64,000 nucleotides of DNA, taken from the NCBI GenBank assembly GCA_030688365.1, contig JAUYIE010000018.1, positions 33,973 through 97,972 on the forward strand, read 5' to 3'. The stretch is from a bacterium. Its GTDB lineage: Bacteria; Patescibacteriota; Patescibacteriia; JACQRZ01. Positions 32,912 through 62,300 of this stretch are shown here, one piece after another (the first letter of the stretch is position 1; each line of letters begins with the position of its first letter). Position numbers and translations under genes: made by a program. The notes below the pieces were generated by a model that was given only the letters and a program-made list of their open reading frames with translations, was not told the DNA's origin and did not search any database.

Positions 32912-33451
32912 ATGAAATTTCTCCGAGACATTTTAGTGATTGACATAGAAGCGACTGACGCTGATACACATACCGCTGACCCAATACAGCTTGGCGCGAT
33001 ATTGTTGGACAAGGAAACGCTGGAAGAAAAGGGTGTATTTGTTTCTTATATCACAACACCAAAAGCATCAAGTGAAGAAGCATATCAGATCCACCACATT
33101 TCCGCCGATGATCTGAAAGGAGCCCCTTCACAATCCGAAGTCGCCGAGACACTTATCAAAAGATTTAGTACTGACGTCATCTTGAGTTCGTGGGTCCAAT
33201 CTTTGGACAACGCCATGCTCACAAAAATGTTTAAAACATCTGGCTATGAAAAATTACCCTATGACCATCACTATCTCGATCTGTGGCCGATAGCATATGC
33301 ACATCTCGTCAAACAAGGATACGAAGGATCAATGGGCTCAACTAGTATGTTTGATGCGTTTGACCTCTCTCCTCGCGAGAAACATGATGCCCTAGATGAC
33401 TGCCGACGCGCAGCAGAAATATTAAAAATAATCATGGATATACAATCGTAA
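32912..33451 (+). CDS. DEDDh-family 3'-5' exonuclease (DnaQ/oligoribonuclease-like)
   Basis: Exo I motif VIDIEATD, Exo II region with Asp, Exo III motif HDALDDCRRAAEIL (H-x4-D). 179 aa. Confidence 0.7.
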   Translation: MKFLRDILVIDIEATDADTHTADPIQLGAILLDKETLEEKGVFVSYITTPKASSEEAYQIHHISADDLKGAPSQSEVAETLIKRFSTDVILSSWVQSLDNAMLTKMFKTSGYEKLPYDHHYLDLWPIAYAHLVKQGYEGSMGSTSMFDAFDLSPREKHDALDDCRRAAEILKIIMDIQS

Positions 33452-33469: not shown

Positions 33470-33506
33470 ACAACAAACCCCGACCAAGTAATCGGGGTTT
33501 TTGTTT
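33470..33506. terminator. bidirectional Rho-independent terminator between the convergent exonuclease gene and giant-protein gene
   Basis: Stem CCCCGA (33478-83) / TCGGGG (33492-97), loop CCAAGTAA. The stem is flanked by an A-run upstream and TTTTTGTTT downstream. Confidence 0.6.
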
Positions 33507-33556: not shown

Positions 33557-36500
33557 TTATCGGATCGCTCCTGAATATGCAATGGCGCGTACGACATCCC
33601 ATTCTGCAGCGCTTACCGGTACTTTTTTGTATATAGCACGGAAGCTCTTTATGGCAGCCGCTTCTGACTTCAGGTTACGCTTATCGCTACGTAGCCCGTA
33701 TGCCATGACAGCAATCGCCGCTTGATCATGAGGATTGGAAAGATCAGCATCTCTCAAGTATACTTTCTTAAATGAACCGATAACCGCCTTTTCACGCTTT
33801 GCATTGAGCGTACCAGGCCAGCGACCGTTTGCGATCTTGATGACATCTTCCCAATCACCGCTTGAAGTTGGAACATATCCAAATGCTGCTTCAAAACTAT
33901 TCACGACACCTGCACGTTCCCCTGCACCCAGTACGACAGTTGTGGGTGTGCCGTATGTTACAAAGTTTAACACTTGAGCTTTTGTAGCTGCTGGTGTCAG
34001 TGAAGACACAACGCGCGCGACAATCGTTGATTCATATTTTTTCTCCATACCAATATCTCTTTTTTGTCCAACATCACTGGCAAGAGTCGCAACGTCGTTC
34101 ATTTTAACTTTTTCCGCTTCTGCTTTTATCTTCGCCACTTGTTGAGCTCGCGCATCTGCGACACTCAAAGTTGGACTCGTGGTAACTGTCGTATCGGTCG
34201 TAACGGTATTCTCAGTTGTAGTCGTGTTATCGGTCGTGGTCGTATCTGTCGTGGTTGAAGTGGTGGCAGTTGAAGATGATGAAGACGAAGGACCTGAGAC
34301 AATTACTCCTCCACTTGAGGATGCGGCGGCGGCTATCGTGACAGATGATGCGCTACTTGCTGCTGATTCTTGATCAGAAGCATTCACAGCGCTTACTTTA
34401 TAGTAGTAGGTAGTGCTTGCACTCAAGCCAGTCGCAGTATAGGAAGTAGTGGTTGGTGATGCCAAGAGCGGAAATGAGGAATTATCCGTTGATTGATAAA
34501 TATTGTATGTGCTCGCTCCATCTACTGCTGTCCATGTCAAACGTGCTGTAGACCCTGTACCTGCATCAGTAACGGTCAGACCAGTCGGAGTGGAAGGTGC
34601 GCCATCTGCCGGCATCAACGGTGCGAAATCCGAAAAGTGAGCAACTGTAGCAGTTAATGTATTGTTATCTGTATCAACGGTCGTCGTCAATGTATCGTAC
34701 GCCTGCGTAGCATCATTCCATGTGCCAATCACCAAGTTGGCTTCAGAGGATCCTGCAGGAATATCAGCTTCGTCATACGGGATCACAATAGTAACACTGT
34801 CATTCAAGCTAGAAAGCTTTTGTCCTGATGAATCCACTGCGGTAATCGTAACTGCATTTTTTGACAGAATACTACCACGTGGCGGTGTTGGCATAGCAGT
34901 GTTGATCTTTGTTGTAACAGTCGCCGCATTAGATCCTGTACCCAGTGCGTTTGCGGGAATATTCAATTTGAAGTTATCACCAATATCACTGTTGGTAAAA
35001 AATCCTCCGGAAGTCGGTGTCACTGTTTCTGGTCGTTCCGGTTTTACCACAAAGTTTGGAATTGCAGTGAGAGACATATCTTGACTTGATACACTACTAC
35101 CTCCCACAATAACTGACATCGGACCACCTTCGTATCCTGGTGCATGCGCTCGAACACTCCATGTTCCCGTATCAACTGCCAATGAATATGCACCCGCAGA
35201 ATCAGTCTGTGCTACAGAATACCCTCCAAGACCATCATTAGCATCCACAAAAGCATTGGAAACACCAGATCCAGAGATGCTAATAGTACCGGTAATCGTT
35301 TTTGAGGCGGTGGTTAATGCAATAGTGCCCACTGCTGTTGCAGCCGTAACTGCAACAGCACTTTCAGCGGGAGACCGATACCCTGGTTTATCTACACGTA
35401 GATTATAAATACCGGCCGGCACGCTGACAGAAAACGTTCCATTTGATGCTGTTTGAGATCCGAGTGCAATGACATTTGTCGTACCTGTCGCTGCTCCTGT
35501 CAACGATACCCATGCACCAGAAAGATTTGATCCATCCCCAGTCACTGTACCCGTAACTGCAAATATCGCTCCTGCTGCTGCAGTATGAGTGATGGTACGT
35601 GTTGTATTTACACCTGTTGTTTCACCAATCTTTCCATAGGCAGGGTGTCCCACGCGAACAGTGTAGGTTCCTGGTGGTACATTCACTGTATAGACAGCAT
35701 TGGCTCCGGACGTTGTACTAACATTAGTGAAGTTACCGCGTCCATTTGAATCACGTACATCAACACCGGCATTAGTAACCGGATTAGTCCCGTCTGTTAC
35801 ATTGATTGTGAGAGTTATCGGCGCGCCAAGTGTACAATCCTGACCTGAAGTTGTTGTATCTGCGGCAACAGCGACACTCGTGAGTGGTGTCCCTTCTCCC
35901 ACGCCAGGGAAGAAACACTTCACCGTATATGTACCGGCAGGTACTTTCACTGTATATGTTCCATCAGTAGCGGTAATTGTCATATTTCCACTTGTTCCAT
36001 CAGCGGTTTCAGCTCGAACCATAACTCCTTGTTGTGCAGTCCCTCCTTTAGTCACTGTTCCTCTAATCGATCCCATAGATAATGTTTCTGCAGAAAAATC
36101 TTGCCCCGTCGCATTACTTGAGCTAATAACAATCGTCTTGGTACCAAGACGACCAAAACCAGGAGCAAACGCTTCTACCACCCATGTTCCCGCGCTCACA
36201 TAGAGAGTATATGCACCATTTGCATCAGTCGGACCACCTACAAAGTTTGAAGAATCTCCTCCTACGGCAGTGGTATCAGCACTGGATGTCACTTTTCTTC
36301 CAGAAACACCCGCATAGGGGATCGCATTACCTGCGTCGTCTTTGATCGTACCACTGATAGTGAGTGATGTTGTTCCAGCGCTCAATCTAAAAGTAAGACT
36401 TGAAGGGGTATTGGATGCGGCACCAACCGTAATCTGCTTATCTGGTACAGGAGGCATACCGGGTTTAAACACACCACATAAATAAACACCTTGGGTTACA

Positions 36501-39500
36501 TTCACGGTAAACGTACCTGTTGTCGTGGTTTGTGTGCCAGTTCCAAAACCATCTGCCATACCGGTCGTAGATGCTGCTACAGGACGACAAAATATATTTG
36601 CAGTGGATACACCCGTACCATTGGAATCTAAAACAAAACCAGTAATTGTTTTATTTGCCGTTGTTAAAGTAAATGCAAGACCTGTAACTGTTTCTTCCGT
36701 AACACTAGCAGATGCTACATTTACTTGAACATTTGCCGGAGGCATAAAAGTAAAGTCTGGTGGTGGTGATGGTGGTGCGCCTGGTGTCATAAATTGTTCT
36801 GGTACTGATGGTCCCACGCCGACATTATATGTTTCATTTGCTGATACAGGTAACGAATATGCATCCGCTCCACCAGAAAGTGTGATGGTCTTTTTTGTAA
36901 AACCATTTGGCGATGAAGCGAAGACATCGATAATTGTACCATTTGTTCCTGTCACCGTTCCTGAAATCGTAATAGCTGCAGCGCTACTCAATGCAAAGTT
37001 TTTTACTGTATTTGCGCTTATAATAATAGGTTGAGGTGCAGAGTTAAACGCCACGTCAATATTTGTATTTGGTTTAATACCCACCATATAATCCCCATCA
37101 GCGAGATTGCTAAAGGTAGCAACACCATCAACCACATCATTTGCAGTCGTCGCTTCTTTACCGCCGGTAGCTGGGCTAAACAAGAAAGCAGTTACGTCAT
37201 TGATTCCTTCCCCGGCATCATTATTTCCATCTGTATTTGCATCCTTAAATACATTTACCGTCAGAGTACGTGATCCTGTCGCACCCAAGAAAAATGGAGA
37301 CGAAGTTTTACTTTCTAAAATAGACCTATAATTATCGGCGGTATCTCTTGTCGAGACCCCAACAGTATAACCAGATGAAGACGGAACAGTTGAATTGACA
37401 ATACCTGTCAAATCAACGCATACAAACGCATTTGCAGAAGTTGCCGCACCTGCTGTATTGATAGTTACTGTTCCTGCATCTGCGTCACCTGCTACTGCCC
37501 CCAACGTAACAGTACCTGTCATTGGTCCGTTTATATCACTGTTACAAAAACTTGCAGTACCTGCCGTCGCTTTACCGACATTGGTGACGTCAAATCCCGC
37601 AGGAAATGTAAGTACGATCTGACCGAGTACGGGAATAGATGTCGTGGCCAGAAATTCAAGCTTATAGTTACTTGTCGCGCCTGCTGAACGTACCATTGGG
37701 GTTACGCGTGTCGGATTCATACCCTGCATACCCGGATCCATCGCCGGCCCGTTTCCAGGACCAAGTTGTCCGCCGGTAGTATCAGAATCTTGCACTGTAC
37801 CGTATGCCACATTATTGGGTGGTGTACCGGTAGTGTCTATACTATTATTTGCCAAATCTTGTACCGCTGGAGTGACCGTGACTTTGAACGTACTGCTATT
37901 TTGTAGAGCGAGACCAGTAATATTTGCCGTCTTTGTTTCACCATCATATGTGACTGTCTTTCCAGAAAGTGAAGCTGATGTACCCACCGGACTCTCTAAC
38001 GCATAGTTTGCGATGTTATCAGCCGCGTTAGGACCACCGCCTGATTTTACTTGTTCAGAGAAAGTAATTGCAACACCGAAGTTATCGGCACCCGAAAACG
38101 TCACTTTTGGAGCAGTACTATCCGTCGTATTATTGGTCGTAAAGGTGGAAGTATAATCATTTGCAGGTGTTGCCGCGCCCAACTGGAGTCCCGCTACACT
38201 TTTAACACCACTGGATCCCGCTAGAGCACGAATACGATACTCTGTGCTCCCGAGAAGTTGTGCTGCAGGCGTAAAGTTTGCTGAACGACTTCCTGGATTA
38301 TAGGTAACCGCACCGGTGATATAACTATCATCTGACGTTTTTTGAAGTTTAATTGTGGAGGTAGTAATCGTAGATGGATCTATGTCTTTTGAAAATCCAA
38401 TACTGATGGACGACGAACGACTTACTCCTGTCGCGCTATTCGTAGGAGAAGTACCTAAGACTGTTGGCGCAGTCGCATCTACTGCACCGGCTGTACGAAA
38501 CGATAGAAAGAAATCAGCAGATGGCGTATCGGTTGTACTGTAAGCGGAAGAAAGTACTTTGGCAACATAGCCAGTATTTACTGCCAGTGCGCTTGCTGGG
38601 GTTATGGTTACTGTTTTTGTTGCAGAATCATACGTATTGGTTGCCGAAACTGCCGCACCAGGTGCACCATAATTATCTAAAAATAATCCAACATTAGCAG
38701 GATTGGTTACCGAATTGGTTCCACTTGAACCGCCTGAAACTGACATATCAACTGAAAACGTAATTTTCACAACACCATTTGGTGGAAACTGTTGATTGCC
38801 GCCTTGTGGAATAGAAGACTGCACAAACGGCGGAGTGGTATTCGTCCCACTAACTGCCCCTGTTGAAAACGTTACAACTGCATTACTTGCCAAGGCATTT
38901 CCAGCCAAGTCTGTAACTGATGTTGTCGCAGTAAGCGTGTAACTACTGGAAATAGTTAACGGTGATGATGAATTATCTAAACGCAACGCAGTGTGGGAAA
39001 CACCTGTCGCAGGAGACGTCACCATATGAAATGCATATGATCCGTTATTTGCAGCATTTGCGGTGGTTGATGCAAAGAGCATGTCACCAAAAGTAAAGGC
39101 AGTCACCTCATCTGTTGCAAGTCCTTGTGCTGCTGGCGTCAACTTACTCATTTGACTACTGTCTTCAACTAAAGAAGAGGCCGCATCAGTTCCATCAAGA
39201 ACAGCGGTACTTTCTCCAAAACCCTCCACAGATGACAAACCTCCTGCCGTTGTCACCAAATGCCATCCATAACTTCCGCCAGCTAGTTGAACAAATACCA
39301 AATCACCTTGTGACACTGCCAGCGTACCCCCACCAGTTACCCCGTTATCGGTCGCTGTTGCATCCATTGCCATACTGCTGACACGAGATCCAGAAACAAG
39401 AGACGGAACTGCCTCATCACCATCAAAACGAAGTGCTTCATCATCAACCGTAGTCCCGGCGGTCACCATATGCCATGCATATCTATCAGAACTATTAGCA

Positions 39501-40618
39501 ACCACAAGCTGGCCGACAATCAATGCGGTAGAGCTTCCCGCTAATCCAGTTTCGGTAGCGGATGCGATTTTTGTTAATTGTTGACCTCCAAATAGTGGAA
39601 ACCCGTTTACTGCAAATGTTCCACCGGTCAATGTCGCATTTGTAACAACCCCAAGTTCAGGCGGAAACGTATCTCGCTGAAACAATACTATATCTCCAGC
39701 ACTTGGAGTTGTATATGTACCATTTGGCACAAATGATCCTGCCCCAAAAGCAGGGAAAAACCCGCTTCCACCAGTAGAAAGTTGTGCAAAACGTGAACTT
39801 GCTGTATAGGTCGGCGCGCTAGAAACAGTCACATCAAATCCATCAGGAAATGGTTTTATACTAACACCAACAGGTGTAACCCCTTGAGTTAGGGTAATGT
39901 TATCAGGCGTAAACGTAGATCCATCCATCTGTTCATTAAACTGCATGTGTAAAAATGTATTGATTGGCACATTTGTGGATGCTGTCATTGGGGCTGTACT
40001 TGAAACAGTCGGTGCGACAGTATCAATTGTAATGGCAGAAGTAACCACAGGGGTTATTGTTGGAGAACCAGAATCCGTGACTATACCATCCGCAGGCACT
40101 GTGAATGTAAACGCATGATCATTAACTGCCCCCGCTGATGTTCGGTATACCAAATAATATGTACCCGCGGCTCCAGGGGTTGTAAGAGTTAATGTTGTGG
40201 ATCCATTACTCCATGCAGATACTGTATCCATAGGCACTACGACATCCGTACCATCAAATGATCCAGCCGTATCCCCTGCATCGTCGTACAAAGCAACACC
40301 GGAAGCGACTTCCGATGCTGCATCAAGAGTAGCCAAATCAGCTGTCGTAAAACCAGATGCACCACTGTCGGTAGCAGTAACAGTAATTGAGTTTAAAACT
40401 TCACCAGCATCAACAGCAATCACGAGCTTAATGGCTGCAGCCGGCACGCTCGACGCTAATGCTCTGTTATTCGCGTAATTGATAAGACTCGTCACTGTTG
40501 GTGTGACGGTTGCCAACGCCACTTGCGCTGTAAACGGCGCAACTCCCACCGAACCAAATATTGTCATTGCTACAACAAATGTGTGTAGTATCCGACGGAA
40601 CCGAACATTTCCTCTCAT
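33557..40618 (-). CDS. giant secreted S-layer-like surface protein (2353 aa). It contains SbsA-type Ig-like (Big_5-like) domains, many carboxypeptidase-regulatory-like beta-sandwich repeats, an FN3 domain, a Thr/Asp-rich linker and a conserved about 200-aa C-terminal domain.
   Basis: Signal peptide MRGNVRFRRILHTFVVAMTIFGSVGVAPFTAQVALA. Big_5-like segments (IDTVAPTVSSTAPMTASTNVPINTFLHMQFNEQMD; DATAPTVLGTSPTNSATGVSRSSSISIGFSKDID). Repeated ...GTYTVKVPAGTYTVKCFFPGVG / VPPGTYTVRVGHPAYG / VPAGIYNLRVDKPGYR modules. FN3 (PSTPTGLTVTDAGTGSTARLTWTAV...TTYYYKVSAVNASDQES). Linker TTSTTTDTTTTDNTTTTENTVTTDTTVTT. Confidence 0.85.
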   Translation of the reverse strand: MRGNVRFRRILHTFVVAMTIFGSVGVAPFTAQVALATVTPTVTSLINYANNRALASSVPAAAIKLVIAVDAGEVLNSITVTATDSGASGFTTADLATLDAASEVASGVALYDDAGDTAGSFDGTDVVVPMDTVSAWSNGSTTLTLTTPGAAGTYYLVYRTSAGAVNDHAFTFTVPADGIVTDSGSPTITPVVTSAITIDTVAPTVSSTAPMTASTNVPINTFLHMQFNEQMDGSTFTPDNITLTQGVTPVGVSIKPFPDGFDVTVSSAPTYTASSRFAQLSTGGSGFFPAFGAGSFVPNGTYTTPSAGDIVLFQRDTFPPELGVVTNATLTGGTFAVNGFPLFGGQQLTKIASATETGLAGSSTALIVGQLVVANSSDRYAWHMVTAGTTVDDEALRFDGDEAVPSLVSGSRVSSMAMDATATDNGVTGGGTLAVSQGDLVFVQLAGGSYGWHLVTTAGGLSSVEGFGESTAVLDGTDAASSLVEDSSQMSKLTPAAQGLATDEVTAFTFGDMLFASTTANAANNGSYAFHMVTSPATGVSHTALRLDNSSSPLTISSSYTLTATTSVTDLAGNALASNAVVTFSTGAVSGTNTTPPFVQSSIPQGGNQQFPPNGVVKITFSVDMSVSGGSSGTNSVTNPANVGLFLDNYGAPGAAVSATNTYDSATKTVTITPASALAVNTGYVAKVLSSAYSTTDTPSADFFLSFRTAGAVDATAPTVLGTSPTNSATGVSRSSSISIGFSKDIDPSTITTSTIKLQKTSDDSYITGAVTYNPGSRSANFTPAAQLLGSTEYRIRALAGSSGVKSVAGLQLGAATPANDYTSTFTTNNTTDSTAPKVTFSGADNFGVAITFSEQVKSGGGPNAADNIANYALESPVGTSASLSGKTVTYDGETKTANITGLALQNSSTFKVTVTPAVQDLANNSIDTTGTPPNNVAYGTVQDSDTTGGQLGPGNGPAMDPGMQGMNPTRVTPMVRSAGATSNYKLEFLATTSIPVLGQIVLTFPAGFDVTNVGKATAGTASFCNSDINGPMTGTVTLGAVAGDADAGTVTINTAGAATSANAFVCVDLTGIVNSTVPSSSGYTVGVSTRDTADNYRSILESKTSSPFFLGATGSRTLTVNVFKDANTDGNNDAGEGINDVTAFLFSPATGGKEATTANDVVDGVATFSNLADGDYMVGIKPNTNIDVAFNSAPQPIIISANTVKNFALSSAAAITISGTVTGTNGTIIDVFASSPNGFTKKTITLSGGADAYSLPVSANETYNVGVGPSVPEQFMTPGAPPSPPPDFTFMPPANVQVNVASASVTEETVTGLAFTLTTANKTITGFVLDSNGTGVSTANIFCRPVAASTTGMADGFGTGTQTTTTGTFTVNVTQGVYLCGVFKPGMPPVPDKQITVGAASNTPSSLTFRLSAGTTSLTISGTIKDDAGNAIPYAGVSGRKVTSSADTTAVGGDSSNFVGGPTDANGAYTLYVSAGTWVVEAFAPGFGRLGTKTIVISSSNATGQDFSAETLSMGSIRGTVTKGGTAQQGVMVRAETADGTSGNMTITATDGTYTVKVPAGTYTVKCFFPGVGEGTPLTSVAVAADTTTSGQDCTLGAPITLTINVTDGTNPVTNAGVDVRDSNGRGNFTNVSTTSGANAVYTVNVPPGTYTVRVGHPAYGKIGETTGVNTTRTITHTAAAGAIFAVTGTVTGDGSNLSGAWVSLTGAATGTTNVIALGSQTASNGTFSVSVPAGIYNLRVDKPGYRSPAESAVAVTAATAVGTIALTTASKTITGTISISGSGVSNAFVDANDGLGGYSVAQTDSAGAYSLAVDTGTWSVRAHAPGYEGGPMSVIVGGSSVSSQDMSLTAIPNFVVKPERPETVTPTSGGFFTNSDIGDNFKLNIPANALGTGSNAATVTTKINTAMPTPPRGSILSKNAVTITAVDSSGQKLSSLNDSVTIVIPYDEADIPAGSSEANLVIGTWNDATQAYDTLTTTVDTDNNTLTATVAHFSDFAPLMPADGAPSTPTGLTVTDAGTGSTARLTWTAVDGASTYNIYQSTDNSSFPLLASPTTTSYTATGLSASTTYYYKVSAVNASDQESAASSASSVTIAAAASSSGGVIVSGPSSSSSSTATTSTTTDTTTTDNTTTTENTVTTDTTVTTSPTLSVADARAQQVAKIKAEAEKVKMNDVATLASDVGQKRDIGMEKKYESTIVARVVSSLTPAATKAQVLNFVTYGTPTTVVLGAGERAGVVNSFEAAFGYVPTSSGDWEDVIKIANGRWPGTLNAKREKAVIGSFKKVYLRDADLSNPHDQAAIAVMAYGLRSDKRNLKSEAAAIKSFRAIYKKVPVSAAEWDVVRAIAYSGAIR

Positions 40619-40802
40619 ATGAATAATGTGGTTAAGCCGACTGTAATATATGCAATCGACATGGTAATTTATAAAAAGAAAACAAAAACTCCTTTACTTT
40701 AATATATAGTTCAATAAAAGTCAGTACCATCCAAAATTAAAAACGACTGTAGCATGAGGCATCTTCAAGAAGAGTATTAATAATAGTATAACACACAGAC
40801 TG

Positions 40803-45348: not shown

Positions 45349-46404
45349 TCAATACGAACCATGCAACCAATGGCGGCATCGCTGATGAGGAGATAATGTT
45401 GTATATAATACAGTATTGTCATGAGCGTTTTGTATACGTACGGGATCGGTATTCCACTCAAAAATACGACGTACACCTTCTTCAAGCGCCACCTGAGGTT
45501 CCCACCCGAGCACGTCTTTGGTCACACAATAATCAATAGAACTATGTGCAACATCTCCCTTTTTTACTGCGCGATACATTGGTTCTTGGTGGTTACCAGA
45601 GACACGCACAATCACATTGAATAATTCATTGATAGAAGTGCGAATACCCGTACTTACATTATACACACCATTCACGTTCGTGTTGAGCGCACGCATACAT
45701 GAATCAACACAATCAGCCACATACACAAAATCTCGTGTATAGCTTCCATCACCGTTGATAATAGATTCTTGCTTATTTAAAAAGTTTTGCACAAAGATAG
45801 AAATCACTCCGCACTCGCGACTGGTTTCTTGTCGCGGACCATACACGTTTGCAAACCGCAACGCCACATAATCAATACCATACGCATCATTTGAATATTC
45901 CAAATGGCGCTCAAACACCACCTTACTATGACCGTATGGCGACACTGGCGCCTGCGTATAATTGTGAGGAAACTTCTCAACACCCGGCGGGAGCTCTCCA
46001 TAGATAGCTCCCCCCGATGACGCAAAAATTATTTTTTTCACTCCACCGTATATACAATTTTTTAAAAGATTTACCCCACCAATGATATTAATATCAATAT
46101 CGTGAATAGGATCCAGTACTGATAATCGCAAGTCAATTTGTCCCGCAAAATGAAACACATAGTCCGGTTTTTCAAGATCAAACACGCGATGTAATTCATG
46201 ATCACGAATATCCATTTGATAAAATCGTGAACCATGTTCTTCTTTTAAGACGACAGGATTGATATATGAAGGACGCCCCGCATAGAGGTTATCGAGCACA
46301 ATCACCGGATATCCTTGTTCTATAAGGTGATCTACAAGATGTGAGCCAATAAACCCCGCACCACCGGTCACTAAAATCTTTGGTTTTGCTGTTGTCTCTT
46401 CCAT
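45349..46404 (-). CDS. NAD-dependent epimerase/dehydratase (UDP-glucose 4-epimerase-like)
   Basis: Rossmann motif ILVTGGAGFIGSHL and catalytic YGHSK (YxxxK). Start is at the internal Met MEETTAK. Confidence 0.75.
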   Translation of the reverse strand: MEETTAKPKILVTGGAGFIGSHLVDHLIEQGYPVIVLDNLYAGRPSYINPVVLKEEHGSRFYQMDIRDHELHRVFDLEKPDYVFHFAGQIDLRLSVLDPIHDIDINIIGGVNLLKNCIYGGVKKIIFASSGGAIYGELPPGVEKFPHNYTQAPVSPYGHSKVVFERHLEYSNDAYGIDYVALRFANVYGPRQETSRECGVISIFVQNFLNKQESIINGDGSYTRDFVYVADCVDSCMRALNTNVNGVYNVSTGIRTSINELFNVIVRVSGNHQEPMYRAVKKGDVAHSSIDYCVTKDVLGWEPQVALEEGVRRIFEWNTDPVRIQNAHDNTVLYTTLSPHQRCRHWLHGSY

Positions 46405-46461
46405 GCGATTACGAGAGTAACAAATTATACGTCTACCCATGTTTATACGACCGATTATCTT

Positions 46462-47559: not shown

Positions 47560-48864
47560 TTATTTTACCAATGAATCATCAAACTCTCCCAAAGTAACCT
47601 TGATATCTTTCTCTTTTCCTCTTGAAAAAACCTTAAGCGTGACTTCAGTGTTTGGCTCATAGAGTGACAATACATGAGCAAGCGCATTTTCATCATTTAT
47701 TTTCTTTCCATCCACCTCTAAAATAATATCATCTTCAGCCAACCCCGCCTTTTCTGCCGGACTGCCAGATACCACACCACGTTCTTTCTTAGTCGGATCC
47801 CCCACGATTACTGCACCATAGCTGTTAGGAAGATTATTTTTCTTCACATATTCCTCATCAACCATCTGGTATCGCACACCTAGCCAAGGACGGACTATTT
47901 TGCCATGCGCACGGACACTCTCCAGGTCTCTCTTCATGATACTAGAAGGAATCGCAAATCCTACTGACTGACCGGAACGTGATACTGCCGTATTCATCCC
48001 GACAACCTTACCTGCGAGATTGAGTAACGGCCCGCCGGAGTTTCCATGGTTGATCGCCGCATCAGTTTGTATCGCTTCATAGATCGTACCCACTTCCCCG
48101 TTGTTGCCACTTGCTTGTACGACGCGATTTATACCTGAAACAACACCTCGCGTCACCGTATTACGAAACTCACCCAATGTGTTGCCGATTGCAATCACTG
48201 TTTGCCCTATCTCCACAGCATCTTCATCAGCAAACTCCAGTGGCACTACATCAGTCGCCTCTATTTTTATCACCGCAACATCGTTCAAAGAGTCGGTAGC
48301 CAGTATCTTCGCGGGATATTCAGTACCATCGTTGGTTACCACTACGTAATCGGCACTCGTATCTGACACCACATGATGATTGGTCAAAATCATCCCATCA
48401 GCTGAAATAATAAATCCTGAACCTTCTCCAATTGTTTGTTTCTCAATTGGTGTATCTTCTTGCGGTGCGGGATTGCGTGGTTCTGTAGGTAACGGTATTT
48501 GAAAAAAATTACCAAATGGACTGGAAAAAAATGGATTGTTTGCCGATGGTGCTGTAACTTCTTTTTTTACCAAAATACTTACCACTGACGGTGACGCCTG
48601 TTTGACCACATCAATGGTCGCCGAATCTTCTTGTACCATACGTGTCTCTTGCGTAACATTTTGTACTAGTCCATTGGGTGTCTCAATGCCAAAATAGGAA
48701 GCAATGCTCCCTCCTTGAGTAAAGCCGACAATACCACCGACTAATCCACCAAAAAAACCAAACCCCAAAGAAATGACCGCAAGAAAAATCATGGTAATAA
48801 TGATTGACTTCCTTGGATATTTGTACACGGTCAACTGTTGTGACTCATCCATATATTTATTCAT
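47560..48864 (-). CDS. HtrA/DegP-family serine protease with PDZ domain and N-terminal TM anchor
   Basis: Catalytic-triad contexts TNHHVV, D...VAVIKI, GNSGGPLLN. C-terminal PDZ-like region. 434 aa. Confidence 0.85.
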   Translation of the reverse strand: MNKYMDESQQLTVYKYPRKSIIITMIFLAVISLGFGFFGGLVGGIVGFTQGGSIASYFGIETPNGLVQNVTQETRMVQEDSATIDVVKQASPSVVSILVKKEVTAPSANNPFFSSPFGNFFQIPLPTEPRNPAPQEDTPIEKQTIGEGSGFIISADGMILTNHHVVSDTSADYVVVTNDGTEYPAKILATDSLNDVAVIKIEATDVVPLEFADEDAVEIGQTVIAIGNTLGEFRNTVTRGVVSGINRVVQASGNNGEVGTIYEAIQTDAAINHGNSGGPLLNLAGKVVGMNTAVSRSGQSVGFAIPSSIMKRDLESVRAHGKIVRPWLGVRYQMVDEEYVKKNNLPNSYGAVIVGDPTKKERGVVSGSPAEKAGLAEDDIILEVDGKKINDENALAHVLSLYEPNTEVTLKVFSRGKEKDIKVTLGEFDDSLVK

Positions 48865-48871
48865 TAATTAC

Positions 48872-49903
48872 TTATCGGCGGGCAATATGTTTAACCCCGC
48901 GTAGTGTTTTCATAAAATCAATTGTTTTTTTCAATCCCTCATCAAGCAATACCACAGGAAACCACCCGGTTTCTTCCTTCACCTTATAGATATTGCCAAT
49001 ATCATTATGTAATTCCCATGCTTTTTGTACAGGGTCGTTCACTGCTTCGTCTGCAAGCCATTCTATTTTTGAAGTTGATTTGGTCAATGCAATAATTTTT
49101 TCTGCCAACTCCTTATAGGTATACACGGCAGTGTGGTTAATGTTGTAAATACCGGAATTTTCAGATGCCATGACTTTTTCAAGACCATTCACTACATCAG
49201 AGATAAAACAAAATGCTCCTTTTTCTAACGCACGCGGGATTTGTAATGGTTTGTTTGCCAACGCACTGGCGATCAAGTGCGGGACGATCCGTCCATCATC
49301 AAGATACATACCCGGTCCATAAACAGTACCTACTCGCGCAATTGCGTATGACAATGAATAATTTTTGGCATACGCCACTACCATTGCTTCAGCAGTACGT
49401 TTTGCGTATGCATAATAATTCAGCGGGTCAAGGTGATTTAACACTCCGACATAATCTTCTGATGGTGTGTATCCTTCTTGCGGAAGCATGCCATACACAC
49501 GTAGATCAGATAAAAATAACACTTTGGCACGGTATTGTGTAGCAACATCCAAGACATTTTTTGTTCCAGCAATACCGGTATTGAGGGTTTCAATCGGATG
49601 GTGGACATACCACTGTGGCGAATCTGTCAACGCACAATGATATATTTCATGGATTCCCTCATAAATGGCCTTTGCTCGTTTTGTACCTGCCATAGTCTTG
49701 AGATCAAACGGTGTCGTGATATCATGGCGTACCATAGTAAAGCCGGGACGCGCCAGTAGATGATCAATGTTTTCTTCATGTCCTGTTACATAATCATCAA
49801 TACAAATCACATGACGGTTGTGATCCAATAGATATTCACACAGATGAGCGCCGATAAATCCAGCACCACCAACAACTAACGCATTTTGAAAATCTTGAGG
49901 CAT
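48872..49903 (-). CDS. NAD-dependent epimerase/dehydratase (UDP-glucuronate decarboxylase/dTDP-glucose dehydratase-like)
   Basis: LVVGGAGFIGAHLCEYLL Rossmann motif and YAYAK (YxxxK). 343 aa. Confidence 0.75.
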   Translation of the reverse strand: MPQDFQNALVVGGAGFIGAHLCEYLLDHNRHVICIDDYVTGHEENIDHLLARPGFTMVRHDITTPFDLKTMAGTKRAKAIYEGIHEIYHCALTDSPQWYVHHPIETLNTGIAGTKNVLDVATQYRAKVLFLSDLRVYGMLPQEGYTPSEDYVGVLNHLDPLNYYAYAKRTAEAMVVAYAKNYSLSYAIARVGTVYGPGMYLDDGRIVPHLIASALANKPLQIPRALEKGAFCFISDVVNGLEKVMASENSGIYNINHTAVYTYKELAEKIIALTKSTSKIEWLADEAVNDPVQKAWELHNDIGNIYKVKEETGWFPVVLLDEGLKKTIDFMKTLRGVKHIARR

Positions 49904-49915
49904 ACATCAAAAAAA

Positions 49916-51967
49916 TTAACGTATTGTTCCTACTTCTATCCCCTTCCTATATTTTTCTTCAAAGGCAAAAAATTGTGCGATCACACCTTTCTGTAAACTA
50001 AATGCACGCACATGAGGTCCCCCATTACCGCGAGGACCGGCAACAACATCAGCAATCCTGTCACCATCTATATCACCACATGATACATTGATACCACCTT
50101 TAAATCCTTTATTGTAAGGATACCAGCTGCGCAAGAGTTCTCCATGTCCGGTAGAAATATGGATTTCATCTCCAACAATCGGACTGGTAATAATTTCCGC
50201 CTTTCCGTCATTATTGACATCACACGATGCGAGTTCAGCACCTGTATGTGCCGACGGACTATATGTAGCCCACATTTCTTTTTGTTCACCTTTGTCATTG
50301 AATACTCGTACTTGTGCATCATTGGCTCGTGATGCCGTGATGATCTCTGCCTTGCCATCACCATCTATATCACCAACCGCAACAGACCACCCTGTACGCA
50401 TTGTCTTGTCATACGCAAAAAATTGCCCAATGACCGTCCCGTCTTGCTTGAAGATGCGTATTTGAGGACCACCGCTTGATTCCGGTATGACCACAATCTC
50501 ATCTGTACCATCACTGTTTATATCCCCCATCGCAATATTTATACCTCCGCGAAATTTTTTGTCATACGCAAAAAATTGGGTAAGAAGTTTTGCGCTTTTA
50601 TCAAAAATACGCACGTGAGGTCCCCCTCCTTTTCCTGCCGCTACTACTATCCAATCACTGGTTTTTGACGTGGCAGTATGAAATGGCACCCTAAACGGCC
50701 CAAAAGGGAAAAAAGATGTTGTCATTGATCCTTGACGACTCATGATTGTCAATGGTGAAGTACCATCGCGTTTTGATACCAAGAGTGCACCACTTGCTGT
50801 TGTTCCCGCACCTTGGAGAACAAACGTCGCGCCTGTTTGTTCCAGTGCAAGACGTACTGATTTACCCACGTTGACCCTGCCGCATCCTAGTTTCCCGACA
50901 TAATTCACATTGAGCGCGTCAATTTCATCACATCCCCCTTTAAGAGCGGTCATCACATCAGCAGTGCTCGCATGTGAATTGACTGATAATATCAATGCCG
51001 CAAGTCCTGAAATCACTGCTGTAGATAACGAAGTGCCCGACCAACCGCCACCGTATGGCGCATCAAATCCGGAAACATAGCTATCTACCAATTGAGTGGA
51101 ATAAAAATCATTACCGGGTACTGACACGTCTACACAGGAACCATAATTTGAAAATTGTGTTTTTTGCCCCAATGAATCCAACGACGCCACACCAATCACC
51201 GCATTGTCAGTACCATCGTAACACGCAGGATACATCTTTGTTTTAGTCGTATCTAGACCTCCTCGCAAATGGTCATCATTTCCGGACGCAGCAACGATGA
51301 CAATACCCGCCTTATGGGCACGACTGATAGCATCTTCCAAAAATCCGCTATCGTTGGGTCCCACAAAACTTAAATTGATGATATTTGCTTTTTGTTTTAT
51401 TGCATAATCTATCGCACGTACTACTGCTATCACATCCCCTTCACCATTGCTATTGATCACACGTAAGGGCATAATACGGCTTCGCCATGAAATACCGGTA
51501 ATACCAATACCATTATTTCCCCTACCTGCGGCAACACCTGCGAGGATAGTTCCGTGCTCCATGCCGGCACTGATAAATGATGTGCCAAACTTTGGACGAG
51601 GATCAGGGGAACTGCTCACAAAATCCCATCCGTTTATGTCATCAACAAAACCATTATGATCGTTGTCAATGTTGTCACCGGGAATTTCATTTGTATTCAC
51701 CCAGATGCTGTCTTTCAAGTCAGGGTGATTGATATCTACCCCACTGTCAATGATAGCTATGATTGGCAATTGTGAACCGGTAGTAACTTCCCATGCTTGA
51801 TTCACGTTTATACTACGCAAATATCCCTGACGAGAATAAAACTCATCGTTGGGAGTGACGGTGGGAGACACGATCGCCGCATTGGCGATACGCAAAAATC
51901 CACCCGATTGACCGGCAATAAGGCAGATGAAGAATACAATGGCGCTTCGCATGAAAGTTCGCATCAT
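49916..51967 (-). CDS. secreted subtilisin-like serine protease (peptidase S8) fused to C-terminal FG-GAP beta-propeller repeats
   Basis: Signal peptide. Asp (IIDSGVD), His (HGTILAGVAAG) and Ser (GTSLSTAVISG) catalytic motifs. At least 5 C-terminal repeats of the form F..YD..F.GG....GDI.GDG..EIV. Confidence 0.8.
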   Translation of the reverse strand: MMRTFMRSAIVFFICLIAGQSGGFLRIANAAIVSPTVTPNDEFYSRQGYLRSINVNQAWEVTTGSQLPIIAIIDSGVDINHPDLKDSIWVNTNEIPGDNIDNDHNGFVDDINGWDFVSSSPDPRPKFGTSFISAGMEHGTILAGVAAGRGNNGIGITGISWRSRIMPLRVINSNGEGDVIAVVRAIDYAIKQKANIINLSFVGPNDSGFLEDAISRAHKAGIVIVAASGNDDHLRGGLDTTKTKMYPACYDGTDNAVIGVASLDSLGQKTQFSNYGSCVDVSVPGNDFYSTQLVDSYVSGFDAPYGGGWSGTSLSTAVISGLAALILSVNSHASTADVMTALKGGCDEIDALNVNYVGKLGCGRVNVGKSVRLALEQTGATFVLQGAGTTASGALLVSKRDGTSPLTIMSRQGSMTTSFFPFGPFRVPFHTATSKTSDWIVVAAGKGGGPHVRIFDKSAKLLTQFFAYDKKFRGGINIAMGDINSDGTDEIVVIPESSGGPQIRIFKQDGTVIGQFFAYDKTMRTGWSVAVGDIDGDGKAEIITASRANDAQVRVFNDKGEQKEMWATYSPSAHTGAELASCDVNNDGKAEIITSPIVGDEIHISTGHGELLRSWYPYNKGFKGGINVSCGDIDGDRIADVVAGPRGNGGPHVRAFSLQKGVIAQFFAFEEKYRKGIEVGTIR

Positions 51968-52907: not shown

Positions 52908-54035
52908 CTATCTTTTGGCTCCTGAATACGCGATCGCACGCACTACATCCCATTCACGGGCAGTCGTGGCGATTTTGCCATACACTGCTCTAAATGTTTT
53001 AAGTGCGGCCGCTTCGCTGTCAAGATTACGATGCACTGATCGCAGACCATATCCCATGACCGTCACTGCTGCGCTGTCATTAGGATTTTTCATGTCTGCT
53101 GCGCGTTTGTAAACCAACTTAAAGTTGATTTTTGCGCGATCTTCGGCTGCTTTGCTTGTTTGAGAAGGAAAGCGACCGTTTGCGATCTTGAGTGCGTCTG
53201 ACCATCCACTTTCCGTTGTAGGAAAGGAGCCAAATGCTGCCAAGTAGCTATTGAGTACACCGGCGCGCTCTCCTGCCCCCAACTTAAGGGTAGTAGGCGT
53301 ACCGTATGTAATGAACGCTACCATTTCTTGCTTATTACTTGTATCCACTGTTTGACCTTTTGAAATAGTAGCAAACAATGTTGTCTCCGTCTTTTGCTCT
53401 GCTGATAGACTTGATTTGGCGTTGACTGAAGCGGCGAGTTCTGCCGGAGTAGATGAGATCGTCGCTGATTCAGCTTTTATCGCTTCAATCTGTGCTGTAC
53501 GTGCGTCTTCTACGGAAGTAGTAGGTGCAGGCGTAGCAACAGTCGTCGTATCAGTTGTTGTTGTGTCTGTCGTTGTGTCGGTTGTAGTGTCTGTTGTTGT
53601 GTCAGTCGTAGGAGCAGACGTTGAAGTACCACCACCACCACCGCCAACTACACCGCCACTTGCTGCGGGTGTACTCGCTACAGTACATTCCGTTGCGGTT
53701 GGCGTAAATACAACACTCGTAAGTGGTCCAGTCAACGTTACAGAATTTTGTGATGATGTACATGTCTGCGTGTATGCGCCACCGTTTGTCAAAAGATATC
53801 TATCTGCAGACACAACAGTGAATGTACTTCCACTAGGAACTGTAACGGTAAAGGTTGTCGCGCCGACATCAAGTTGTGTAGCAACAGACCCCGTAGAGAT
53901 CGTTAACGTAATATCATTCACTGACATGTAAGTGTCTGTACTGTATGTGAGATCCGCTGCTGATGCCAACTGTCCTACTCCTGCGCTTGCAAGCACGAAG
54001 ACACCAACCACCAGAGAAACTATTTTTTTCTTCAT
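52908..54035 (-). CDS. secreted protein (375 aa): signal peptide, about 100-aa beta-rich N-domain, (TDTTT)n linker, and a C-terminal domain paralogous to that of the 2353-aa giant protein
   Basis: Signal peptide MKKKIVSLVVGVFVLASAGVGQLASA. Linker TDTTTDTTTDTTTDTTTTDTTT. The C-terminus aligns to the giant-protein C-terminus at about 50% identity (TYGTPTT.LGAGERAGV.NS..AAFG...NGR.P...NPND.AA..VMGYGLRS..RNL.SEAAA.K.FRA.Y.K....EWDVVRAIAYSGA.R). Confidence 0.65.
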   Translation of the reverse strand: MKKKIVSLVVGVFVLASAGVGQLASAADLTYSTDTYMSVNDITLTISTGSVATQLDVGATTFTVTVPSGSTFTVVSADRYLLTNGGAYTQTCTSSQNSVTLTGPLTSVVFTPTATECTVASTPAASGGVVGGGGGGTSTSAPTTDTTTDTTTDTTTDTTTTDTTTVATPAPTTSVEDARTAQIEAIKAESATISSTPAELAASVNAKSSLSAEQKTETTLFATISKGQTVDTSNKQEMVAFITYGTPTTLKLGAGERAGVLNSYLAAFGSFPTTESGWSDALKIANGRFPSQTSKAAEDRAKINFKLVYKRAADMKNPNDSAAVTVMGYGLRSVHRNLDSEAAALKTFRAVYGKIATTAREWDVVRAIAYSGAKR

Positions 54036-54068: not shown

Positions 54069-56675
54069 TTATTCAATACAGATGTAATTAATGACTTTTG
54101 CTGATGCGGTCCACGCCGATGCTGGAGTAATAGTAAGTGCTGTAGCTGATGTCGTGGCAACAGGTTTAATGGTACCAGCATCCTCAAAATCAGTAGCTGT
54201 TGTCGCATCACCTGCTGAAATTATACAGACAGGTGCAGCACTATATGTCTTATCAAATGCGAGAATGATAGCATTTGTGTCAGCCGTTGTCGCTGTACGG
54301 ATCTGCCCACGCATGTCAGTACATGTTCCTGCACCATTTCCAGCAGTACAAGTTGGAACTTGTCCAGCATATGTAGCAACAGGTGCTGTTGTCTGCGTTG
54401 ATCTCAAGTGAGAACCAGCTTGGTCACCTGCATTGATAATAACCGCGCCGGTTGCGTCACCGATAGTGGTACGCGTTCCTTGACCGATCGTCAATGTAAT
54501 ATTTCCTCCTGCCTTTGAAGCATCTTGACCCGCACCGGCAGCACCTGATGCGATTGTTACATTTCCACCCGCACCATCAGTCGTCGCACCGTCTCCACCG
54601 GCACCTGCCGTCAGAGTAATCGCACCACCGGCTCCACCGGTAAGACCTGTTCCCGACCCACCGGCACCGGCGGTAAGAGCGTATGCTCCACCAGCACCGT
54701 TTGTACCAGCACCAGTTGAGTTCACACCACCGGCACCAAGAGTAATAGTCATTGCTCCACCAGCACCAGAATCAGCAGAGGCACCTGTGGCGATTCCACC
54801 ATCACCTGTATTGATCGCGAGTGCGCCAGCAGCACCACCAGCTTCTGCTGCGGCAGGAGTACTACCCGCACCTGTTGTTACTGTTATCGCGCCACCAGCT
54901 CGTGCTGCCGTACCAGCGGTACCACCAGCACCTGATGTGATAGCAATCGCGCCACCTGCAGCATCAGTGCCAGCATCGCCACCTATTATAGAAACTGTAC
55001 CTGGTACGTTGTCAAGATCTGCTGTTCCAGACTGGACAGTCACTGCACCTGATACTCCACCAGCCGCAACACCAGAGCCCAAGGTAACCGCACCTGTCGC
55101 ACCAGCTGTTGATGCTCCGGAAGCAATCGTAACTGCACCAGATGCACCTGTTGCTGTTTGAGTTCCACCAGTGATAGCTACTGCACCACCGGCACCTGTC
55201 GCACCAGCGGCACCACCAGTGATAGCAATGGCACCACCGTTACCGGTACCGTTTCCATCACCACCGACAAGACTTGCAACCCCACCAACAGCGTCAGTCG
55301 TACCTGCACCACCTGTCACTGACACGGCACCACCAGCACCAGAGGTTGCGCCACCAGCACCACCAGTTAATGATCCAGCACCACCGGCACCTGTCGCACC
55401 AGCGGCACCTGCTACCAAGGTAACAGCACCACCGTTACTTGCCAGACGTCCCGCACCAGCGGTAAGTGTTACTGCACCACCAGCCGCGCCTGTCGTACTT
55501 GAACCCGCACCAGCTGCACCAGCGGTAATACTTACTGCACCACCGGCACCTGCTGTACCAGCACCACTTGTCGCTCCACCGGCACCTGCTGTTAAGTTCA
55601 ATGCACCACCGGCACCTGCTGTACCAGTTGTATCAGCTCCACCGGCACCAGAAGTTATGGCATAGGCACCACCGGCACCACCGGTACCAACCACTGCACC
55701 ACCACCTGCACCCAGTGTCCATGCTACCCCACCACCGGCACCACCGGTACCAGCATCTGAAGCGGCTCCACCAGCACCAAAAGTTACTGCCAAAGCACCA
55801 CCGGCACCACCGATACCAGTTACGGTGACTCCACCTGCACCTGTTGTTATAGAATGAGCTCCACCTGCACCACCGGTATTATCCAACGTTGCACCACCAC
55901 CTGCACCCGATACTGAAGTGATTGCACCACCGGCTGAAGGAGATGCGATAGCGGTTGTACCCGCTGCACCTGCCGTCATGGTGATTGCACCACCGGCTGC
56001 TCCGCCACCCGTACCACCTGCACCTGCTGTTACTGCTACCGCACCACCGGCAACGGTGCCTGCACCGTTATTTCCTGCCTGTACTGTAACGGTTCCCGGC
56101 ACACCTGTTGTTGTTGTTGCACCTGATGACAATGTAACTGCACCAGAAGCCGCTGCTGTTGCCGTTCCTGATCCGAGAGTCAAAGCACCCGAAATACCAG
56201 CCGAGTTACCTGATGTCAAAGAAACAGCACCGGTCGTTCCTGAAGTCGTTGTTGTTCCTGATGCGAGAGTCAAAGCACCCGAAGCAGCAGCTATGGCTGT
56301 TCCAGAAGCGAGACCGACTGCACCCGAAGCGGCGGCAGAAGCACCCGAAGCGAGTGTTAACGCACCAGTCGTTCCTGAAGTCGTTGTTGTTCCCGACTTA
56401 AGGTTTACTGCACCTGAATCCTGTGCGGTACCTGCACCGGAGGTGAGTGTCAACGCACCACCAGTCGCTGCTGTACCTGCACCTGCAGTTGCGGTAATCG
56501 CGCCCGCTGAAGCTGCAGTCACTGTGTATGCGCCATCAGACGCCACTGTGTTTGCGCTAAATGTAAGCGCCGCCATTGCAGGTTGGGTGATGCCAAACAT
56601 CAACGCCAACGCCGCGACGCCAACCACCGGCACAATACGTGCTCGTGTGTGGCGCAAGAAAGAGTGTTCTCTCAT
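54069..56675 (-). CDS. secreted Gly/Ala/Thr-rich low-complexity repeat protein (868 aa) with non-repetitive Cys-containing C-terminal domain
   Basis: Signal peptide ...ALMFGITQPAMA. Hundreds of G-A-G-G-A / T-A-G-A-G-G units. The last about 110 aa are non-repetitive with 4 Cys. The DNA is strongly GC-rich relative to its surroundings. Confidence 0.65.
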   Translation of the reverse strand: MREHSFLRHTRARIVPVVGVAALALMFGITQPAMAALTFSANTVASDGAYTVTAASAGAITATAGAGTAATGGALTLTSGAGTAQDSGAVNLKSGTTTTSGTTGALTLASGASAAASGAVGLASGTAIAAASGALTLASGTTTTSGTTGAVSLTSGNSAGISGALTLGSGTATAAASGAVTLSSGATTTTGVPGTVTVQAGNNGAGTVAGGAVAVTAGAGGTGGGAAGGAITMTAGAAGTTAIASPSAGGAITSVSGAGGGATLDNTGGAGGAHSITTGAGGVTVTGIGGAGGALAVTFGAGGAASDAGTGGAGGGVAWTLGAGGGAVVGTGGAGGAYAITSGAGGADTTGTAGAGGALNLTAGAGGATSGAGTAGAGGAVSITAGAAGAGSSTTGAAGGAVTLTAGAGRLASNGGAVTLVAGAAGATGAGGAGSLTGGAGGATSGAGGAVSVTGGAGTTDAVGGVASLVGGDGNGTGNGGAIAITGGAAGATGAGGAVAITGGTQTATGASGAVTIASGASTAGATGAVTLGSGVAAGGVSGAVTVQSGTADLDNVPGTVSIIGGDAGTDAAGGAIAITSGAGGTAGTAARAGGAITVTTGAGSTPAAAEAGGAAGALAINTGDGGIATGASADSGAGGAMTITLGAGGVNSTGAGTNGAGGAYALTAGAGGSGTGLTGGAGGAITLTAGAGGDGATTDGAGGNVTIASGAAGAGQDASKAGGNITLTIGQGTRTTIGDATGAVIINAGDQAGSHLRSTQTTAPVATYAGQVPTCTAGNGAGTCTDMRGQIRTATTADTNAIILAFDKTYSAAPVCIISAGDATTATDFEDAGTIKPVATTSATALTITPASAWTASAKVINYICIE

Positions 56676-62135: not shown

Positions 62136-62300
62136 AAAGTCTTTCCTTTCGTAGTTATTATTAGTGACCATCTCCAGCGAACCTTTGCGATTCCTTTGAG
62201 GAAAAGCGGTCTCGACCTTTACTGAAGCGGACTAGATACGGCTTTTAAAAAAGTTGCCCTTTTTAAGTTTCGTGCCTAGATTTTAAACAAAGGGGAGTTT

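Follow-up and report, generated by a model that had tools for sequence, protein, structure and literature searches.

Introduction

In the S-layer proteins SbsC of Geobacillus and Sap and EA1 of Bacillus anthracis the cell-wall anchor is N-terminal, and consists of SLH domains or, in SbsC, of a coiled coil that binds secondary cell-wall polymer (SCWP). Giant adhesins, such as LapA, SiiE and MpIBP or Ebh and SdrD, carry near-identical repeats in variable number together with RTX/type I secretion system (T1SS) or LPXTG signals. Here we analysed a stretch of 64,000 nucleotides from a bacterium of the Patescibacteriota (contig JAUYIE010000018.1 of assembly GCA_030688365.1, positions 33,973 to 97,972; hereafter the window), and in it a single open reading frame (ORF) at 33557..40618 on the minus strand, whose product of 2353 amino acids (aa) we call the giant protein. 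Like SbsC (PDB 4uic, 4uj6), Sap (6qx4, 9g93) and EA1 (8opr), it would combine a Sec signal, an Ig-like chain and a separate wall-binding module. It differs from them in that its putative anchor is C-terminal and has an unrelated all-alpha fold, in that it is two to three times larger and built of Big_5 and CarboxypepD_reg modules, and in that it is known here from sequence, with lattice formation being speculative. Very large size and Ig-like or transthyretin-like repeats are shared with the giant adhesins; in contrast to theirs, the repeats of the giant protein are diverged and fixed at eight, and RTX/T1SS or LPXTG signals are absent.

Cryo-electron microscopy of groundwater cells of the Candidate Phyla Radiation (CPR) has shown that they lack an outer membrane and bear a periodic surface layer (bioRxiv 10.1101/2020.05.14.094862), and an in silico survey proposed large, Ig-rich, anchored proteins with signal peptides as the S-layer proteins of Patescibacteria (bioRxiv 10.1101/2024.05.28.596244). 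For CPR lineages, the literature searched yielded neither a layer protein nor an anchoring system that had been identified by experiment. The SLH and CWB2 modules of Firmicutes have three repeats, occur on several secreted proteins per genome and are exchangeable, and swaps of anchoring domains between homologous S-layer or cell-anchored proteins are documented (bioRxiv 10.1101/2025.04.02.646754). The C-terminal module of the giant protein resembles them in these respects; it differs in having no sequence or fold similarity to them and no TRAE motif, and in being restricted to Patescibacteria-type genomes. We report that the ORF encodes a genuine, conserved, secreted surface protein of ultra-small bacteria, the Patescibacteria/CPR, and that the giant protein is probably best explained as an envelope protein that is secreted through Sec and held on the wall by an anchor not described before.

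Results

A secreted protein conserved among Patescibacteria

The ORF is uninterrupted, starts with ATG, comprises 2353 codons and a stop, and occupies 11% of the window, as the initial annotation had described. The predicted mature protein has a mass of about 233 kDa and an acidic body with an isoelectric point (pI) of 4.5, and there are 6 cysteines in the 2353 aa. Sequence inspection and hydropathy predicted a Sec-type signal peptide at aa 1-36 (40511..40618; this and all other parts of the protein lie on the minus strand), with four Lys/Arg in residues 1-10, a hydrophobic core and cleavage between VALA and T. The AXA-type cleavage site is conserved in orthologs, and hydrophobic segments were found only within the N-terminal ~70 residues. 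When the protein was scanned for LPXTG, lipobox, RTX nonapeptide and thioester motifs, none was detected. Membership of the sortase-anchored LPXTG class was rejected, there being neither the motif nor a C-terminal hydrophobic segment, as was the RTX/T1SS giant adhesin class, given the absence of GGxGxD nonapeptides and the presence of an N-terminal Sec-type signal.

A search of 5.8 billion proteins revealed that an identical protein (P0121) is already on deposit in NCBI as 'MAG: Ig-like domain-containing protein [bacterium]'. Some 40 orthologs also emerged from this search; they measure 1944-2686 aa and share 50-65% identity with the giant protein across 73-93% of the length. Those with names come from metagenome-assembled genomes of Doudnabacteria, Uhrbacteria, Parcubacteria and the 'Patescibacteria group', in agreement with the CPR context that had been suggested from the sequence. 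A SdrD_B match is precomputed for several of them.

The order of modules is the same in the ~40 orthologs. Counted with a profile hidden Markov model (HMM) of the repeats, 37 of the 40 closest orthologs have eight repeats and the other three have seven; each repeat was 63-74% identical to its positional counterpart. These data indicate a fixed architecture and neither an expanding or contracting stalk nor a collapsed assembly. The comparison of repeat number among relatives that had been proposed thus yielded no expansion or contraction. An assembly chimera or a collapse of repeats, which the initial annotation had named as one of two findings that would refute its reading, can be set aside with near certainty: direct repeats of 25 bp or more are absent from the DNA of the gene, in which there is a single trivial tandem repeat, the protein repeats are only 30-40% identical to one another, and collinear orthologs of matching length come from about 40 independent assemblies, one with the same tail included.

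Conservation among orthologs is uneven. It is lowest within the body in the N-terminal domain (34%), rises to ~50% across the Big_5 domains and is highest, at 63-74%, in the repeat array, and the conserved body stops at the motif HFSDFAP (~aa 2000), beyond which the fn3 domain is 42% conserved and the linker and tail are at background level. The body is made of known domains and its architecture, that of a conserved family, is usual within its own lineage. The initial annotation had regarded the domain combination with its novel C-terminus as non-standard; this view holds for the C-terminal module, which is unannotated, and fails for the body, which is conserved in the lineage and already represented in NCBI by the identical protein.

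The body is a chain of about 20 beta-sandwich modules

When the whole giant protein was scanned with Pfam, four families exceeded their gathering thresholds: Big_5 (PF13205; 86.7 bits in 5 stretches, threshold 23.6), CarboxypepD_reg (PF13620; 71 bits in 6 stretches, threshold 32.3), fn3 (PF00041; 31.3 bits, and 35.1 bits in a segment scan, threshold 25) and PEGA (PF08308; 24.2 bits, threshold 20.8). The NCBIfam scan of the protein gave no match. AlphaFold2, applied to aa 30-1190 with an alignment of 48 homologs, modelled this part as an all-beta chain of sandwich domains with a mean predicted local distance difference test score (pLDDT) of 85. These scans and models support the beta-sandwich and Ig-like folds that the initial annotation had proposed to check in this way, and the acidic body as a whole consists of about 20 beta-sandwich modules in a fixed series.

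Following the signal peptide is a beta-sandwich domain at aa 37-198 (40025..40510) that was modelled by AlphaFold2 and has no Pfam match. The first Big_5 domain is split (38855..40024): in a scan of overlapping pieces, profile positions 1-55 matched aa 199-253 and positions 11-105 matched aa ~494-586, the second half being delimited at aa ~494-588. Nested between the halves is an all-beta insert of 240 aa (aa 254-493; 39140..39859), also modelled by AlphaFold2 and without a Pfam match, which consists of three to four units of ~55 aa with the pattern GD[IL]V...Y[AG][WF]H[ML]VT...LR.D, is present in all orthologs and is 51% conserved. Big_5 domains 2-4 follow at aa 594-709, 714-828 and ~833-930 (37829..38839), with 54.7, 62.1 and 23.0 bits in the segment scan, which placed the last of them at aa ~842-929; the single-domain scores were 30.8, 24.1, 54.7, 62.1 and 23.0 bits, the fourth domain being marginal by itself. 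At least three SbsA-type Ig-like segments had been claimed for the N-terminal third. Four Big_5 domains were indeed found, and the motif D.T[AP]P.V has 2 exact and 4 relaxed matches against shuffle means of 0.02 and 0.19; the strict motif fits only two of the domains, and the first domain is interrupted by the insert.

The region that follows, aa 931-1176 (37091..37828), is an unannotated beta region without a Pfam match; it is 64% conserved and contains a conserved pair of cysteines, C1025 and C1067, that probably form a disulfide. Next come eight CarboxypepD_reg/PEGA-like (transthyretin-like) repeats at aa 1177-1908 (34895..37090), supported by Pfam and by the iterated HMM. Self-BLAST of the whole protein detected none of these repeats; fragment BLAST and an HMM iterated on the giant protein were required because the repeats have diverged. 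The HMM gave exactly eight, in accord with the earlier count of at least eight, and the signature P[AP]G.Y.[LV][KR] behind that count has 3 matches in the protein and none in 500 shuffled sequences.

Behind the repeats we found a segment at aa 1909-2005 (34604..34894) that is conserved in orthologs, has no Pfam match and ends in HFSDFAP, then the fn3 domain at aa 2006-2092 (34343..34603) and a Thr/Ser-rich spacer at aa 2093-2147 (34178..34342; 40% Thr, 20% Ser), so that the predicted succession of an FN3 domain and a Thr-rich linker was confirmed. The protein ends with a basic, all-alpha C-terminal module at aa 2148-2353 (33560..34177), which has a pI of 9.67, was modelled by AlphaFold2, has no Pfam match and is the proposed cell-wall anchor.

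Foldseek searches with the body model retrieved generic Ig-like arrays, including those of the S-layer proteins SbsC (E 1.4e-8) and Sap and EA1 (4e-7 to 2e-6). Ig-like domains of LdtMt2, alpha-2-macroglobulins and receptor ectodomains were matched with similar scores. An alpha-2-macroglobulin-like identity was rejected, since the thioester motif C[GLS]EQ is absent and the fold matches, with a template-modelling (TM) score of ~0.08, are to generic beta-sandwich arrays.

Relatives replace the C-terminal module by other tails

We classified the tails that follow HFSDFAP in 51 family members, some by regular expression, with Pfam verification on representatives. The majority (28-30) carry one to three PG_binding_1 domains, with 95, 67 and 128 bits in verified examples. 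The same C-terminal module as in the giant protein was found in 7, among them the best ortholog, P0122, and two SH3_3 domains were found in 2. Further tails are an unannotated repeat of the form xGTLV...GY (at least 5 members), a 'KVYAV' module (2) and coiled-coil-like sequences (a few), while a distant relative, P0175 (28% identity over 58%), has three SLH motifs as its tail. The orthologs with classical anchors, such as P0124 and P0129 with two PG_binding_1 domains and P0123 and P0146 with two SH3_3 domains, are 56-62% identical to the giant protein and show its domain order up to HFSDFAP, with eight repeats in most; it is the cassette beyond the fn3 domain and linker that differs. By sequence comparison, the C-terminal module is one of several interchangeable tail cassettes. 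Since PG_binding_1, SH3_3 and SLH take the equivalent position in relatives, the module was read as a putative wall anchor.

Two of the other tails deserve description. The xGTLV-type tail forms the C-terminal ~250 aa of P0126, P0132, P0144, P0145 and P0156, has no Pfam match and is composed of four or five repeats of ~55 aa with the pattern [HP].G[TA]L[VI]...G.V[YW].I..G.[KR]..F.S...F...GY.F. The KVYAV module has a counterpart in the window: the ORF at 58050..62171 (minus strand) encodes a secreted protein of 1373 aa without a Pfam match and with a ribosomal-like codon score of 0.030, whose N-terminal ~130 aa (AVYYYGSDGKRYVFP...DPKVYAV...LRWVS) are 54% identical (E = 9e-53) to the tails of P0143 and P0166. 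Its presence at the N-terminus of this protein and at the C-termini of orthologs suggests a second unannotated, putative anchor cassette that could be used at either end of a protein.

The module defines a large unannotated family

The C-terminal ~205 aa of the giant protein share 53% identity (E = 1.7e-62) with the C-terminal part of a 375-aa protein encoded at 52908..54035 (minus strand), which bears out the shared domain that the initial annotation had noticed. This paralog begins with a signal peptide, which is followed by a small beta domain and a Gly/Thr linker, and ends in the module (52911..53516). When 1.84 billion cluster representatives (clusters at 50% identity) were searched exhaustively with a profile, 1408 module proteins were recovered at E<=1e-3, hence at least 1408 clusters, and 926 at E<=1e-30. 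The module was the extreme C-terminus in 124 of 126 family proteins, a first search having given 118 of 120, and the proteins that bear it range from ~200 to 3600 aa. Their other domains, the passengers, are of extracellular types (fn3, Bact_surface_Ig-like, CHB_HEX_C_1, Ice_binding, GDSL lipase and polysaccharide deacetylase). The charge contrast seen in the giant protein (pI 9.67 against 4.5) recurs family-wide, with a median pI of 9.06 for the module and of 4.2 for the passengers, 98% of which lie below 6.

In species-representative genomes 340 module loci were found, the best 80 of which were used for counts of copy number and neighbours; several genomes contribute 2-4 loci each to these 80, and the window holds 2 copies. 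The best genomic matches are from Kerfeldbacteria (67-68% identity). Named records are mostly Patescibacteria (Kerfeld-, Uhr-, Falkow-, Jackson- and Veblenbacteria, Parcubacteria), with many Third Party Annotation (TPA) assemblies labelled otherwise or generically. Loci L009, L014, L020, L038, L039 and others bear the labels 'uncultured Gammaproteobacteria' (one 876-kb contig), 'Latescibacterota' and 'Methanobacteriaceae archaeon', which are likely to be placeholder names or mis-binned short contigs and not genuine cases beyond Patescibacteria.

AlphaFold2, using 50 homologs, modelled the module as 11 helices with a pLDDT of 96.1 and a predicted TM score of 0.90. The last six helices form three degenerate helical-hairpin repeats of ~40 aa; global alignment with hhalign related R2 to R3 (P = 9e-5) and R1 to R3 (P = 6e-4), with R1-R2 undetected. 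Invariant residues, in domain numbering, include R119, R163, R167, R197, W109, W193, Y140, Y160 and Y201, a mix of Arg, Trp and Tyr that would be typical of anionic-glycan-binding sites. A profile search of PDB sequences gave 0 matches, and the best Foldseek match in BFVD had an E of 0.8. We found no similarity of the module to PG_binding_1, SH3b, SLH, CWB2, LysM or GW, and no TRAE, GW or LysM motifs. A relation to DUF4214, prompted by an insignificant BFVD match, was rejected because 50 members gave no signal at E<=1. Phage relatives were found neither in IMG/VR contigs nor in BFVD, a result that is uninformative on borrowing. The module therefore constitutes an unannotated family, with a confidently predicted fold for which no PDB counterpart was detected.

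Genomic context of the giant gene

The window is a core chromosomal region in which the minus strand carries all large ORFs except one, and which includes the genes for ribosomal protein S7, EF-G, EF-Tu, L2, SecY, methionine aminopeptidase and RF1, as well as NDK, ComEC and a D-Ala-D-Ala carboxypeptidase. A GC-rich, terminator-like hairpin (AAACCCCGA...TCGGGGTTT) at 33475..33500, for which no strand is assigned, lies between the giant gene and a convergent RNase T-like ORF (32912..33451), and the giant gene looks monocistronic. A promoter scan returned matches no more often than in shuffled sequence. Upstream, a 15-codon ORF (MSIAYITVGLTTLFI followed by a stop; 40614..40661, minus strand) overlaps the start of the giant gene with its stop codon (ATGA), which may represent translational coupling or chance; the start of the giant gene lacks a Shine-Dalgarno sequence immediately in front of it, the AAGGAG lying ~70 nt upstream.

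Comparison of three contigs (those of the window, P0122 and P0126) revealed no conservation of the gene neighbourhood. The neighbours are NDK and ComEC in the window, HtrA and a histidine kinase on the P0122 contig, and a sortase and type IV pilus genes on the P0126 contig. The HtrA-like protease was considered as a calibrator of conservation and was not used, the proteins being only 28% identical between two genomes and probably paralogs.

The second module gene of the window has a possible partner. An ORF at 54069..56675 (minus strand), 33 nt upstream of 52908..54035, encodes a secreted Gly/Ala/Thr-rich repeat protein of 868 aa; its GC content is 55% against a background of ~42%, and its codon score is ribosomal-like and the second highest in the window. 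Among the best 80 module loci, 20 have an anchorless secreted protein rich in Thr, Ser, Ala and Gly directly upstream of a module-bearing protein of 370-490 aa, in the same order as here. The mature N-terminus of these upstream neighbours reads 'ATTIGxNxxTxGxLTV', and the 868-aa protein begins 'ALTFSANTVASDGAYTV'. Because BLAST of the 868-aa protein against the recurrent neighbour family gave no match, its link to that family rests on gene order and on this N-terminal motif. The two genes may form a conserved two-gene surface structure, consisting of a fibre and a wall adaptor, and the pair may itself be a rival candidate for an S-layer or sheath.

Between the two module genes, domain annotation identified a subtilase with FG-GAP repeats (49916..51967), an HtrA-like protease (47560..48864) and two NAD-dependent sugar epimerases/dehydratases (45349..46440 and 48872..49903), all on the minus strand, with possible roles in envelope processing and glycan synthesis.

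Discussion

We propose that the giant protein is exported through the Sec pathway by a monoderm patescibacterial (CPR) cell, and that it would be held non-covalently on the cell wall by its basic helical module once the signal peptide has been cleaved. The module would most likely bind peptidoglycan or an anionic wall polymer, using its invariant Arg, Trp and Tyr. The Thr/Ser spacer, probably glycosylated, would span the wall zone between module and body, leaving the acidic beta-array outside with the variable N-terminal domain as its distal tip; conservation, which is 34% at the tip and climbs to 63-74% in the array proximal to the wall, fits this tip-outward orientation. As a general anchor, the module would serve several secreted proteins per genome and be evolutionarily interchangeable with PG_binding_1, SH3b and SLH. 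We regard the wall anchoring of the giant protein as likely, and we infer the binding of the module to the wall, the orientation and the glycosylation of the spacer from the features described above.

Three other functions have to be weighed against a wall anchor carrying a surface protein. The giant protein could be a host-attachment adhesin, that is, a long stalk on an episymbiont that binds the host through its variable N-terminal tip and forms no lattice. CPR cells are often episymbionts, giant size and Ig-like modules would suit such a role, variability is greatest in the N-terminal domain, and the gene of ortholog P0126 adjoins a sortase and type IV pilus genes. Unlike the repeats of stalk adhesins, however, those of the giant protein are fixed at eight, mutually diverged and positionally conserved; several candidate lineages whose hosts presumably differ share 50-65% identity in the body, the signatures of LPXTG or RTX machinery are lacking and the neighbourhood is not conserved. 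We therefore consider an adhesin unlikely, if still the strongest of these alternatives.

The other two concern the module itself. That it is a protein-protein docking domain for a partner embedded in the membrane or wall is suggested by its all-helical build with three hairpin repeats, by the lack of resemblance to known glycan binders and by the small module proteins paired with a secreted protein in 20 of 80 loci, although such pairs would fit a wall-bound adaptor equally well. Against docking stand the wall-glycan binders (PG_binding_1, SH3_3, SLH) that hold the equivalent position in relatives, the basic charge and invariant Arg, Trp and Tyr, which would fit an anionic glycopolymer ligand, and the want of a conserved partner gene next to the giant gene, so that this function seems improbable to us. 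Its strictly C-terminal place on many unrelated passengers would also be expected of a secretion or sorting signal removed in export, like the C-terminal domain of the type IX secretion system (T9SS), PEP-CTERM or LPXTG. Yet 205 aa of folded helices far exceed the known size of sorting signals, no transmembrane segment or sorting motif trails the module, an N-terminal Sec signal is already there, and the position is interchangeable with bona fide wall-binding domains; we give this possibility very little weight.

Whether the wall-anchored protein also builds the surface layer is a separate question. Traits of S-layer proteins are present in it, namely a predicted signal peptide, an acidic pI, low cysteine content and a putative separate anchoring region. 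The fold matches to the Ig arrays of SbsC, Sap and EA1 and the PEGA match add to the plausibility of such a role, as do the periodic layer of CPR cells and the documented swapping of anchors. The high conservation of the body could reflect the constraints of a lattice. An S-layer role is plausible, and the giant protein is the lineage's best candidate for a component of the CPR periodic surface layer; that it forms a lattice is speculative and, in our estimate, rather less than probable. In the literature we found no metaproteomic evidence for the protein.

Several observations weigh against parts of the proposed reading. For the layer, the codon score of the giant gene (+0.007), a weak proxy of expression, is intermediate between ribosomal and bulk genes: it is within the ribosomal range (-0.005 to 0.073) and above that of 26 of the 28 bulk genes, with two other surface-protein genes of the window scoring higher. 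Moreover, S-layer proteins are not usually as conserved as this body, with its 50-65% identity over 2000 aa between lineages, and an extended chain of ~20 modules would be far longer than a typical S-layer is thick. As for the anchor, Pfam scans of 50 module members gave nothing consistent even at E<=1, the best Foldseek match to the PDB had an E of 3.3 with a TM score below 0.25, and hhalign assigned a probability of 3% to a relation with the PG_binding_1 alignment. With no detectable kin among wall-binding domains, the function of the module is read from its position and context only. The pI of the module is below 8 in 37% of the family members. Finally, in P0185 (681 aa) a DEAD-box helicase (DEAD and Helicase_C) is apparently fused to the module; this is probably a merged gene call, whereas a genuine fusion would be at odds with a role confined to the outside of the cell.

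If the anchor reading is wrong, the giant protein remains an ordinary multi-Ig surface protein that was correctly predicted. The furthest-reaching possibility, which we put forward as tentative and hold a little more doubtful than lattice formation by itself, is that the module is a Patescibacteria-specific fold for binding the wall or a secondary wall polymer, the CPR counterpart of SLH and CWB2, and that the giant protein is the lattice protein of the periodic layer. If this is true, the module defines the set of proteins displayed on the wall of CPR cells. A model of the module would re-annotate well over a thousand 'hypothetical' proteins and, should it bind the wall, the module would provide a handle for labelling or enriching uncultured CPR cells, for example as a GFP-module fusion. 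The envelope is among the least understood parts of the biology of CPR/Patescibacteria, and this locus supplies a strongly conserved candidate for a major envelope protein.

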